DNA from: an uncultured delta proteobacterium
GTDB taxonomy: Bacteria > Desulfobacterota > Binatia > UBA9968
Direction: 5' to 3'
Length of the DNA: 64,000 nt
Assembly (NCBI GenBank): GCA_963745035.1
Contig: CAVUVW010000014.1
Span: 736,001 to 800,000 of the forward strand
Each line of letters begins with the position of its first letter. Position 1 is the stretch's first letter. The position numbers and the translations under genes were made by a program. Under the pieces are notes generated by a model. It saw nothing but the letters and a program-made list of their open reading frames with translations, did no database searches and was not told the origin of the DNA. Shown in pieces: positions 3,822 through 64,000 of the stretch.

Positions 3822-4069
3822 GTCATGCCCGCGAGGCGGGCATCCAGGTTGATCGCGAATTCCGCAGTCGCACTTGGTTCAGTTCGGCGATCCTGGAGTC
3901 GCGAGACACTCAAGGGCGCAGCCGCAAAGCCTTCTCACGCCTGGCAATTTATCTCCTTCGCTATGGAAGGATGGCGTCCCGCCGGCTCCACCGCGGATTT
4001 CGTGTTGATATGAGGGATGTATGTGAGGCACACACCCTGGATACCTCGCTGGGAGCCTGCGGGAATGAC
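3822..4069. repeat. REP/REPIN-like palindromic element
   Basis: GTCATGCCCGCGAGGCGGGCATCCAGG (3822-3848) and an inverted partner CCTGGATAC...GCGGGAATGAC (4036-4069) between convergent genes. Confidence 0.55.
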
Positions 4070-4115
4070 CCGAGTGGGAAATCGACTGCGCGCTTTTGTT
4101 TGGCGAGGGAGCGCG

Positions 4116-5102
4116 TTAATTCCGCGGCACTTGCTTAAGGATCTCGCCGATCACTTGGTCGGTGGTGATATTCTCGGCTTCCGCCTGGAAGTTGAGGATC
4201 AGACGGTGGCGCAAGGCCGAATGTAAAACCCGCTCGACGTCTTCGTAGCTCACGTGCACGCGGTTCTCGGCCAGCGCCTGGCCCTTGGCGCCGAGAATCA
4301 CCGCTTGAGCGCCGCGCGGACTAGCGCCGAATCGGATGTACTGCTTGACCAGCGTTTTCACCCCTCCGCCGTTGCCGGCCTCCGGCTGGGTCGCGTGGAC
4401 CAAGCGCACCACGTAGTCCTCAATTGGCGGCGCGATCATGACTTGGCGCAGGAGCTGCTGCATCTCACCGACCAGGCGGCCGCCGTCTTCGGGCAGCACC
4501 TTGGAAACCTCTCCGGTGGACGTGCCGGTGGTGCGCTTGAGAATCTCCTTGAGCTCGGCCGGCGCCGGCGCCGTCACGAGCAGCTTAAAGAAGAAGCGAT
4601 CCAATTGCGCTTCCGGCAGCGGGTATGTCCCTTCGAGCTCGATCGGGTTTTGGGTGGCGAGCACGATGAACGGCGACTCGAGAATATGGGACTCCCCGAA
4701 AACGGTTACCTGCTTCTCTTCCATCGCTTCGAGCACCGCCGACTGGGTCTTCGGCGTCGCGCGATTGATCTCGTCGGCGAGCACGACGTGGGCGAAAATC
4801 GGCCCGCGCTTGAACTGAAATTCGCGCCGGCCGTTGTTCTCGGTGAGCACCTCGGTGCCGACGATATCTGAGGGCATCAGGTCGGGCGTAAATTGAATGC
4901 GTTTGAAGGACATGCCCAGGGCCTGGCTCAACGATTTCACAAGCAGTGTCTTGCCCAGGCCCGGCACGCCTTCGAGCAGGACATGTCCGCCGGCAAAAAA
5001 GGCGATCAGGATGCGCCGGACGAGGTCACTGTGGCCGACAATGACCTTCTGCACTTCGGTCTCGAGGCGCTTGAACGTTTGCTGAAATTGTTCCGGCTCC
5101 AT
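4116..5102 (-). CDS. moxR: MoxR-family AAA+ ATPase
   Basis: HVLLEGVPGLGKT, RIQFTPDLMPSD, LADEINR, ATQNPIELEGTYPLPEAQLDRF, GASPRG. Confidence 0.95.
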   Translation of the reverse strand: MEPEQFQQTFKRLETEVQKVIVGHSDLVRRILIAFFAGGHVLLEGVPGLGKTLLVKSLSQALGMSFKRIQFTPDLMPSDIVGTEVLTENNGRREFQFKRGPIFAHVVLADEINRATPKTQSAVLEAMEEKQVTVFGESHILESPFIVLATQNPIELEGTYPLPEAQLDRFFFKLLVTAPAPAELKEILKRTTGTSTGEVSKVLPEDGGRLVGEMQQLLRQVMIAPPIEDYVVRLVHATQPEAGNGGGVKTLVKQYIRFGASPRGAQAVILGAKGQALAENRVHVSYEDVERVLHSALRHRLILNFQAEAENITTDQVIGEILKQVPRN

Positions 5103-5110
5103 GAAGCTCC

Positions 5111-62199: not shown

Positions 62200-63081
62200 A
62201 TGAAAAGGTTTGTATGGATTCTGGTGGTTTTCGTGGCGGCGCTGGCGGCCCAGGCGGCCAATGCGGCTCAGTCGGGCTGTGGCAACGGTGCCCGCCTAGG
62301 CAGCGGTGACGGGTTGAACACTATCCTCGCGCTCACAGATGATCAAAGGCTGTTGCGGTTCCAGGAGTGTAGGACGCGAACCCGCCAGATTGGCAGCATA
62401 GCCGGACTCCAAGCGGGGGACACGGCGCTAGTGGGCATGGATTTCCGCGTGCAGGATGGCCTGCTCTATGGAGTTGGCAATGGCGGGGGCCTCTACACGA
62501 TCGACACCGACACGGCAGTAGCGACCCCGGTCGGGCAGTTGACGGTCGCTCTTAGCGGCAACTTCTTTGGCGTCGACTTTAATCCGGCCGCCAACGCTCT
62601 AAGAATCATCAGCAACACCGGTCAGAATCTGCGGCATCCATTTGCCGGCACTTTGGTGGGTCAGACCCAGCCCGACAGCAGTCTCAACTACGTCGGTGTT
62701 CCGGCAAATGGGGTCACCGGCGCCGCGTATACAAACAACGACCTGGAGCCGAACACGGCGACGACACTATTTACCATCGACACGTCGTTAAACCAAGTCA
62801 ACGTCCAGTCGCCGGCGAATGCCGGCTCGCTTGCGCCGACCGGCATGCTGACTGTAGATGCCGATACGCCGGTCGGATTCGACATCTACACAGAGGTGCG
62901 CAGCGATCAGAACACCAACGATCGGGCCCTCAACAACCGTGGCTTCGCATCGCTGGTGGTGGCTGGTGTAATCGGATTCTATCGAATTAATCTCCTGACC
63001 GGAGAGGCGTTCTTTATCGATGACTTTAGCGATACGGTGATCGACATCGCCATTCCGCTCAATCAGAAGTTGAGGAAGTAG
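62200..63081 (+). CDS. secreted DUF4394-like protein
   Basis: Signal peptide, GMDFRVQDGLLYG, GVDFNPAANALRII, AAYTN; AAGGAGG RBS. Confidence 0.8.
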   Translation: MKRFVWILVVFVAALAAQAANAAQSGCGNGARLGSGDGLNTILALTDDQRLLRFQECRTRTRQIGSIAGLQAGDTALVGMDFRVQDGLLYGVGNGGGLYTIDTDTAVATPVGQLTVALSGNFFGVDFNPAANALRIISNTGQNLRHPFAGTLVGQTQPDSSLNYVGVPANGVTGAAYTNNDLEPNTATTLFTIDTSLNQVNVQSPANAGSLAPTGMLTVDADTPVGFDIYTEVRSDQNTNDRALNNRGFASLVVAGVIGFYRINLLTGEAFFIDDFSDTVIDIAIPLNQKLRK

Positions 63082-63462
63082 ATGAGAAGGGGAGGAAAGG
63101 GGATAGAGGAAGAGAAGCAGACAGCCCAATTTACATGCTGCTTTTCGCGATCCCCTTTTCTCACCCAACCCACCATGGGATAGCAGTTTGGAAGTATCGA
63201 CGCTTAAGCCTAGGGACCTAAAGGGTATTGACGTGGGCGCATTGTGGCATACTCGACCTCCGGGGTTTCGAAGATCCTGACGAGAACTTTGTCCATCTAG
63301 TCAACAGCGTCCCCACCGAAGCTTCCTTACGCGAATCGGGCGAAGACTTTTTTCTGCAGCGAGCTATAGCGCTGATCCGGTGAGCAGGCAATTTACAGTT
63401 CTTCTTCTGCGACCTTATCGAGCTCGCCCCGCGTCCATGCGGTGAGCGATGAAGACGGTCCC

Positions 63463-64000
63463 TTATCCCCAAACCTCACGCGCAGTCCTGACGACGAGTG
63501 CGAGCTTTTGCGTTTGTTCTTCAGGCGAGATCGGGTTGCCGAGAACAGACGAAGCAAAACCACACTGCGTGCTGACGCCGAGCTGCGCCAGGGGAAAATA
63601 CTTGCTCGCCGTCCTGACGCGCCGGCGCAGGTCATCCACGCGCTCAAGCCGGCCTTTTTTAGTGGTGATCAAGCCGAGCACGAGGAATTTGTCTTCGGGT
63701 ATGTCCTTGAGCGCCGCGAACGTGCCCGCGCGATCATCGTCGTATTCGAGCAAGAGTCGCTGTACCTTGAGCCGCTGGAAGAGCCCGCGACTGATCGATT
63801 CGTAACCTCCCTCGGCGAGCCACCGGCCGCCCTGATTGCCGCGTCAGAGATGGAGCGCGAAAGTGACATCTGGAAATCCGGCGATGATCGCATTGTCCAG
63901 CTCGATGCCACGCGTCAACCACTGGTCCAGACTCCATCCTTGCTCTTCGTAGAAACGCCGCGTCTTGGCGTCGAGGATCAGCCCGTAGTGCGGCGCATCG
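63463..64000 (-). CDS. cobalamin-independent methionine synthase II family protein (5' part outside window) with in-frame TGA, probably selenocysteine
   Basis: DAPHY...ALHL*RGNQGGRWLAEGGYE...LEYDDDRAG...LGLITTK...QCGFAS, all in one frame across TGA 63844-63846. Confidence 0.85.
63814..63831 (-). promoter_or_regulatory. candidate bacterial SECIS hairpin
   Basis: GGCGGCC-GGT-GGC(T)CGCC starting 13 nt after the TGA, apical G at about +20. Confidence 0.55.

Follow-up and report, generated by a model that had tools for sequence, protein, structure and literature searches.

Cobalamin-independent methionine synthases of the MetE type, as found in E. coli, T. maritima, fungi and plants, are proteins of about 750 aa in which an N-terminal folate domain accompanies a catalytic TIM barrel with an H-x-C...E...C zinc motif and Ser, Glu and Asp residues for homocysteine. 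As listed in PMC7857596, the zinc ligands of E. coli MetE are H641, C643, E665 and C726, and its homocysteine residues are S433, E484 and D599. The core methionine synthases MesA to MesD consist of a single Meth_synt_2 domain with an HCEC zinc site, and their methyl donor is not methyl-folate (Price et al. 2021, PMC7857596). That paper contains 0 mentions of the word selenocysteine, and MesA-MesD are without reported selenocysteine (Sec). A relative with a solved structure is 1YPX, a 'putative vitamin-B12 independent methionine synthase family protein' of Listeria monocytogenes (YxjG/YxjH-like; PRK06233, PRK06520), which has the same single-domain size as the protein described here. To our knowledge, the function of 1YPX has not been established.

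Sec in place of a metal-ligating Cys is known from FdhA (Mo/W-Se) and from the [NiFeSe] hydrogenases, for which Cys homologues exist and in which UGA is decoded through SelB with the help of a hairpin within the coding sequence. The same arrangement is proposed here for a MetE-like protein. FdhA and the [NiFeSe] hydrogenases carry out redox chemistry, as do nearly all selenoproteins known to us, whereas the MetE-like protein would use Sec at redox-inert zinc for alkyl transfer.

The locus described here encodes a predicted protein that resembles MetE in its catalytic barrel, its putative H-x-C...E...C zinc motif and its homocysteine Ser, Glu and Asp residues, but it has 367 aa and no folate domain, and it carries a predicted Sec at the first Cys ligand. 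It shares the single Meth_synt_2 domain of MesA-MesD but is close to none of the four: the NCBIfam models for the core enzymes score 26-90 bits, far below their cut-offs, and the family profile reaches the MesD structure 3RPD only distantly (E 5.5e-16), together with MetE enzymes. No MesX-like (DUF1852) or corrinoid-protein gene adjoins the Sec gene in the loci that were read. With 1YPX it has in common the fold (TM 0.75), the Q-C-G-F motif and the H-I-C-R-G-N motif, in which 1YPX has Cys and the protein described here would have Sec. PRK06520 and PRK06233 are its nearest named families, although it falls below both cut-offs.

The gene, its TGA codon and the protein family

The window, a stretch of 64,000 nt corresponding to G000:C14:736001-800000 of the source genome (G000), contains on its minus strand the 3' part of a MetE-like (Meth_synt_2) gene (63463..64000), assigned from its frame, PF01717 and Foldseek and comprising codons 189-367 and the TAA stop. 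From 63999 to the TAA at 63463-63465 the frame is open apart from a single TGA at 63844-63846, and with U standing for that codon it reads ...DVTFALHL-U-RGNQGGRWLAEGG...STQCGFASS...VWG-stop, as an earlier sequence-only reading of the window had reported. The complete gene has 367 codons and starts with an ATG at G000:C14:800566, beyond the window edge; the TGA is codon 241 and the sole TGA in the frame. Translation with table 11 yields two pieces, one open at its 5' end and ending in HL (63844..63999) and one of 96 aa started at a TTG (63463..63753), so that the expectation that standard annotation would split the gene was borne out. The TTG start lies 30 codons 3' of the TGA. Alternative frames of the locus are interrupted by TGA elsewhere, as for an ordinary stop codon.

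The 367-aa protein has a single domain, without an N-terminal Meth_synt_1 folate-binding domain, and matches PF01717 (Meth_synt_2) over residues 8-339 with 50.6 bits against a cut-off of 21. No model of NCBIfam release 20 takes it above its cut-off; the nearest are PRK06520 (243.1 bits, cut-off 313) and PRK06233 (220.9 bits, cut-off 576), and the two-domain MetE model TIGR01371 reaches 33 bits against 929.95. An AF2 model of the protein (pLDDT 88.3, pTM 0.90) matched the MetE catalytic domains of Thermotoga, Neurospora, Candida and Arabidopsis in Foldseek with probability 1.00 and TMq 0.71-0.76, and 1YPX and 3RPD were also among the matches. The best solved relative is 1YPX, which aligns end to end with E 2.5e-51, or 1.2e-75 with a profile.

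The residues of the presumed active site were compared in the same way. Residue 241 (63844..63846) aligns with the Cys of the H-x-C zinc motif, in 1ypx and 3rpd as well as in MetE, where it is the equivalent of C643 of the E. coli enzyme as numbered in PMC7857596; this agrees with the claim of the sequence-only reading that the TGA replaces the zinc-motif Cys. His239 of H-x-U (63850..63852) and Cys335 of QCGF (63562..63564), which that reading had also picked out, are aligned with the H-x-C His and the C-G Cys of 1ypx and 3rpd, and Cys335 also with that of Candida Met6; they are the predicted zinc ligand preceding residue 241 and the predicted second sulfur ligand. Glu274 in LLLEYDD (63745..63747) is a candidate third zinc ligand, assigned by position only since the alignment to 3rpd is ambiguous there. 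In the alignment to T. maritima MetE, Ser11, Glu62 and Asp190 fall in its GS, GE and QID(E/A)P motifs. All of these positions (S11, E62, D190, H239, C/U241, E274 and C335) are fully conserved across the 31 sequences of alignment A3, some of which are paralogues.

Taken together, the family, fold and zinc and substrate motif matches identify the 367-aa product as a predicted 'core' MetE-like zinc alkyltransferase that lacks a folate domain. With the homocysteine residues of MetE retained (Ser11, Glu62, Asp190), the methyl acceptor would most likely be homocysteine or a close analogue. The source genome also encodes a full-length MetH (1670 bits) and six Cys-containing paralogous loci, and two-domain MetE is absent from it. 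Given MetH and the six paralogues, the Sec protein is probably not the housekeeping methionine synthase, a role that would fall to MetH. Of the earlier label 'MetE-II methionine synthase', the assignment to the MetE family and fold (PF01717, TM 0.71-0.76) therefore stands, while the enzyme name holds as a family name only in a genome with MetH. The source genome has one more MetE-like frame that contains a TGA (C13:141075-142322), but there the TGA precedes the real start codon and is not a Sec site.

TGA and cysteine codons among relatives

In 61 related genomes, the codon aligned with codon 241 is TGA in 24 of the 25 orthologues that cover the site and TGC in one (G009). Two of the 24 TGA genomes (G005 and G035) are unpublished, and the count without them is 22/23; the orthologue in G020 stops at a contig edge before the site. 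The 24 TGA orthologues show 57-100% identity and contain exactly one TGA each, always at the H-x-C codon, and in the orthologues RGNQG follows directly in frame. A frameshifted 26th copy (G014) retains both the TGA and the hairpin described below. Paralogues, at 42-44% identity, carry TGC. A search of 401 sampled genomes of the phylum at E <= 1e-110 brought up orthologues in only two, members of family f1 that each have TGA.

The 80 relatives on metagenome contigs divide into 29 with TGA and 51 with TGY (TGC or TGT), a proportion that is meaningless because the sample was ranked by likeness to the Sec form and one search pattern was spelled with Cys. Over all relatives examined, TGA occurs in 57/110 sequences and TGC or TGT in the other 53/110. 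Relatives thus alternate between TGA and Cys codons at exactly codon 241, which was one of the checks proposed with the sequence-only reading, and the recurrence of TGA at the same codon in 57 of 110 sequences makes a chance nonsense codon unlikely. The TGA form occurs in records under the titles Thermodesulfobacteriota, Candidatus Binatia, delta proteobacterium and Syntrophobacteraceae and, as two copies that read H-L-U-C-G-N, in an Acidobacteriota MAG; a Terriglobia MAG has the Cys form. Carriers of the TGA form include the near-closed genomes G037 (1 contig), G039 (2 contigs) and G041 (7 contigs), and soil and rhizosphere metagenomes contributed many contigs with it. Pairwise comparison of 51 full-length Sec forms gave a mean identity of 69.7% upstream of the TGA and 65.2% downstream, so that the two sides are conserved to a similar degree. 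Cys homologues are abundant, with 7606 matches among 8000 scored candidates; the best 120 of these 7606 have 59-67% identity, lengths of 367-406 aa and unbroken frames, and where named are called 'cobalamin-independent methionine synthase II family protein'.

Assemblies from other samples also carry the TGA. It is unchanged in X3, a 3458-nt DNA contig of a different study that spans the whole stretch examined, and in X15 and X16, contigs that bridge the site and were each assembled from an RNA library of a further study. These are assembled contigs and not raw reads, and those from RNA libraries indicate presence only, not transcription. X15 covers 63667-63981 and a further contig, X2, covers parts only of the stretch; the uncovered parts carry no evidence.

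Trees of the family were built quickly with IQ-TREE (LG+G4, SH-aLRT only) and rooted on three paralogues. In the larger tree of 111 rows, from which L140 was left out for its stops, 42 Sec forms and one Cys form make up one large clade with support 100, and small Sec groups, namely the f2 genomes, the Acidobacteriota copy and several metagenome contigs, stand among Cys forms. The best 111-row tree needs 8 state changes, of which well-supported branches force only 2. In a 92-row tree, the Cys forms P0003 and G009/P0005 lie inside the Sec clade with support 97-98. Sec groups among Cys forms and Cys forms within the Sec clade indicate, as judged from these trees, that Cys and Sec have been interchanged more than once.

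Genes for Sec insertion accompany the TGA form. The source genome has a tRNA-Sec (selC) scoring 76.7 bits with anticodon tca, and selA, selB and selD above their cut-offs, all together on contig C17, so that the Sec machinery asked for by the sequence-only reading is present in full. Its SelD and FdhA genes contain one TGA each. A Sec-machinery gene was found in all 24 TGA genomes: 15 have tRNA-Sec, eight more have selA above the cut-off, and the last, G001, which is 65% complete, has a TGA-containing selD. The nine TGA genomes in which tRNA-Sec was not detected are all fragmented assemblies. In the Cys-form genome G009, tRNA-Sec, selA and selB were not found above cut-off; one of its contigs opens with a partial selD, so that the operon may have escaped assembly.

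The hairpin downstream of the TGA codon

A SECIS-like hairpin lies at 63814-63831 on the minus strand, exactly where the sequence-only reading had placed it. It has seven base pairs, one bulged U and an apical GGU loop at 63822-63824, with 19 nt between the TGA and the loop, and its minimum free energy (MFE) is -11.8 kcal/mol. The model of bacterial SECIS elements in section 5 of PMC13188914 describes a loop of 3-9 nt with a G in its first two positions, mostly as G[G/U], an upper stem of 4-16 bp, a distance of 16-37 nt from UGA to loop and an MFE <= -7.5 kcal/mol. With its GGU loop, 7 bp, 19 nt and -11.8 kcal/mol, the hairpin fits this published model on all four criteria, though it is no stabler than shuffled GC-rich sequence (z = +1.01; 170/200 shuffles fold at least as well). 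An Rfam scan of 63400-64000 at E <= 10 gave no SECIS family and only two chance lncRNA matches.

Conservation of the stem was assessed in the 24 genome-derived Sec forms, where the eight pairs of the stem are formed in 90.1% of cells; sliding the 3' arm lowers this to 28-78%. Of 500 shuffles, 5 reached the covariation score of the stem; covariation is thin, with double-sided changes at a single pair, in 3 cells. When RNAalifold was applied to the 24 aligned sequences, it chose not this hairpin but a different, weak structure of -6.06 kcal/mol with 0 compensatory pairs.

A comparison of Sec and Cys forms was more informative about the loop. The 110 sequences contain 101 distinct 45-nt fragments, 50 from Sec forms and 51 from Cys forms. 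Among the Sec forms the loop Arg codon is CGG 46 times and CGT 4 times, which gives a G[G/U]U loop in 50/50, while the Cys forms use CGC (33), CGT (12), CGA (4) and CGG (2), so that CGG or CGT occurs in 14/51. The Arg codon immediately after the TGA/TGY site has no comparable skew between the two forms. The G-first loop expected of a conserved downstream hairpin is therefore kept, by a synonymous constraint seen in the TGA forms only. The residue after W-L also differs, being Ser, Ala, Thr or Leu in 49/50 Sec forms and Val in 39/51 Cys forms. Seven to eight contiguous pairs from the loop are found in 32/50 Sec forms versus 8/51 Cys forms, and mean local MFE is -10.97 kcal/mol in Sec forms versus -7.26 kcal/mol in Cys forms (Mann-Whitney p = 2e-8, a value that overstates the difference because the rows are mutually related). 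The 4-bp stem core AGCC/GGCU occurs in Cys forms too, because the conserved S-R-W-L codons encode it.

The FdhA gene of the source genome provides a comparison within the same cell: its stem is GGUCGCC/GGCGGCC and its GGUCU loop starts at +22, against +23 in the MetE-like gene. In E. coli fdhF, G23 and U24 are the contacts of SelB.

Proposed decoding of the TGA and possible role of residue 241

We propose that the coding-region hairpin (7-8 bp, GGU loop), which begins 12 nt after the UGA and has its loop 19 nt after it, would recruit SelB carrying Sec-tRNA(Sec), and that codon 241 is very likely decoded as selenocysteine. From the alignment, Sec would replace the Cys of the H-x-C zinc motif, and with Sec in that position the predicted metal site is His239/Sec241/(Glu274)/Cys335, a zinc-selenolate centre. 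Homocysteine or a similar thiol may be activated on the zinc and then methylated by a donor other than methyl-folate. To this explanation as a whole, that is, a MetE-like zinc alkyltransferase with UGA-encoded Sec at residue 241, zinc ligation included, we assign a probability of roughly 0.85. As to why Sec might be used, one suggestion is that the zinc-bound thiolate might become more nucleophilic beside a softer, electron-richer ligand; another is that a selenenyl-sulfide formed with Cys335, being easier to reduce than a disulfide would be, might shield a site prone to oxidation. Both suggestions are speculative.

A competing view of the locus is that UGA terminates translation, leaving either a pseudogene or a 240-aa fragment with a separately started C-terminal fragment. 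The two pieces given by table 11, with a TTG start 30 codons past the TGA, and the frameshifts in two relatives (L051 and L064) would agree with this, but 57 sequences from at least two well-supported clades have the TGA at the same codon, the 30 codons between TGA and TTG are among the best conserved and include RGNQG.RWL, identity is 70% before the TGA and 65% after it, and predicted zinc ligands lie on both sides of it. Termination is accordingly scarcely credible. Very improbable too is readthrough in which Cys, Trp or another standard residue is inserted without selenium, by near-cognate suppression or a reassigned code. Cys can be inserted at Sec codons under selenium scarcity. Against readthrough without selenium stand the complete Sec machinery and the other TGA-containing selenoprotein genes of the genome, the presence of a single TGA in the frame and its Cys position, the loop-codon constraint specific to TGA forms, and the behaviour of TGA as a stop in alternative frames of the locus.

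If Sec is inserted, it might still do something other than serve as a passive zinc ligand: it could form a reversible selenenyl-sulfide with Cys335 as a redox switch or to protect an oxidation-sensitive site, act as a transient methyl acceptor, or bind another soft metal. Only one of the two sulfur ligands is Sec and Cys335 is invariant, a fold match (1xr2) is by its title an 'oxidized T. maritima ... methionine synthase', and MetH and the six Cys paralogues in the genome mean that the Sec copy may be specialised. PMC13188914 also notes Sec as a possible metal-binding ligand in other predicted families. The interchange of Cys and Sec within one orthologous clade, however, suggests the same basic chemistry for both forms, and we consider these other roles unlikely.

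The preferred explanation of a zinc-bound Sec can be extended to a fuller reading, to which we give an even chance. In it, Sec241 would directly ligate the catalytic zinc and form what would be, as far as our literature search shows, the first natural zinc-selenolate enzyme centre, acting in non-redox alkyl transfer, and Sec would have arisen from Cys more than once by way of a proto-hairpin. A repeated origin would be favoured because the G-S-R-W-L coding sequence already forms a proto-hairpin of 4-5 bp at the right distance, and a working SECIS could then follow from the change of TGY to TGA and a few others of a synonymous or conservative kind, CGC to CGG in the loop and Val to Ser or Ala after W-L.

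The proposed protein was compared with the literature on selenoproteins. No entry for MetE, Meth_synt_2 or a methionine synthase appears in Table 1 of PMC13188914 (May 2026), which lists 119 prokaryotic selenoprotein families and subfamilies. The words methionine synthase, MetE and homocysteine do not occur in the main texts of PMC13188914, the GOS paper, the deep-Sep paper (PMC12013277), the Olavius paper and Peng et al. 2016, and the Haft preprint has 0 mentions of these terms, zinc or cobalamin. A full-text literature search for selenocysteine with PF01717 or methionine synthase gave nothing relevant, prior mention in supplements or subscription papers being possible, and a full-text keyword search found no natural zinc-selenolate enzyme site. 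The Sec form of this MetE-like core zinc methyltransferase is thus a predicted selenoprotein family that was previously uncatalogued.

A Sec residue in the zinc site of an alkyltransferase, if true, would offer a natural test of how a selenolate affects zinc-thiolate reactivity or oxidation resistance. Standard calling breaks the gene into two pieces. Since the form is spread widely (Thermodesulfobacteriota, Binatia, Acidobacteriota, soil and rhizosphere), the annotation of many environmental genomes would be affected. The Cys and Sec forms side by side would also show a SECIS growing out of ordinary coding sequence.

No conserved operon surrounds the gene in the loci read, and the neighbourhoods give no functional lead. 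The neighbours are DUF899 and DUF4394 genes in the source genome, TauE/SafE genes in three loci and TenA/haem-oxygenase-like genes in three f2 genomes, and an isochorismatase gene is also among the neighbours in the loci read.

Additional selenoproteins and the hairpin loop

FdhA (contig C14, 603436-606417, outside the window) and SelD (contig C17, 318816-319742) are also selenoproteins of the source genome, G000, each with one TGA. The FdhA hairpin has a GGUCU loop at +22, and the SelD hairpin, which lies farther downstream, has a GUU loop on a GUGCAA/UUGCAC stem. The same GUU loop is found in four metagenome-contig Sec forms of the MetE-like gene with the in-frame TGA (the Sec gene), where it replaces GGU and the Arg codon is CGT (loci L076, L085, L095 and L114). 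G-U-U seems to be tolerated in the hairpin loop, and G-C-U and G-A-U not.

Paralogues of the Sec gene

Six paralogous MetE-like loci with Cys, at 34-52% identity, were found in G000: two on contig C14 (180445-181593 and 203013-203453), two on C10 (60585-61682 and 129737-130378), one on C5 (52730-53869) and one on C11 (40261-41335), the last in two pieces, which suggests that it is frameshifted. The genome also carries a full MetH (contig C13, 1609845-1613393). A more distant MetE-like gene on C13 (141075-142322), with H-I-C-W-G ... C-G-F, has a TGA in its open frame, which was rejected as a Sec site because it is upstream of the likely gene start.

Gene neighbourhood

Downstream of the Sec gene and convergent with it is a gene for a secreted-looking DUF4394 protein (window 62200-63081, plus strand, 211 bits), and upstream, on the same minus strand and just outside the window, is one for a DUF899 protein (L026, 2737-3471, 136 bits). 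Neither is kept beside the Sec-gene orthologues. In three orthologous loci, L038 (genome G012), L042 (G025) and L043 (G015), the Sec gene adjoins a gene for a TauE/SafE-family exporter at about 733-1486, and in the three related f2 genomes (L047-L049) it is followed by a TenA / haem-oxygenase-like gene of 222 aa.

Variant copies

Sec-gene copies with an out-of-frame stretch were observed in L051 (contig C31 of genome G014) and L064, a record titled 'uncultured delta proteobacterium'. In both, which are 81-87% identical, the frame is lost at about residue 186 and regained at about residue 300, and CAT CTC TGA and the hairpin are present despite the frame loss. This loss could be a long-read indel error or reflect a decaying copy. 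Two contigs of one Acidobacteriota MAG (L062 and L063, match at 4001-5107) carry copies, identical to each other, that read H-L-U-C-G-N: right after the TGA comes TGC, in place of the Arg codon of all other sequences, which sets a Cys beside the Sec. The GGU-loop hairpin is retained in L062 and L063.
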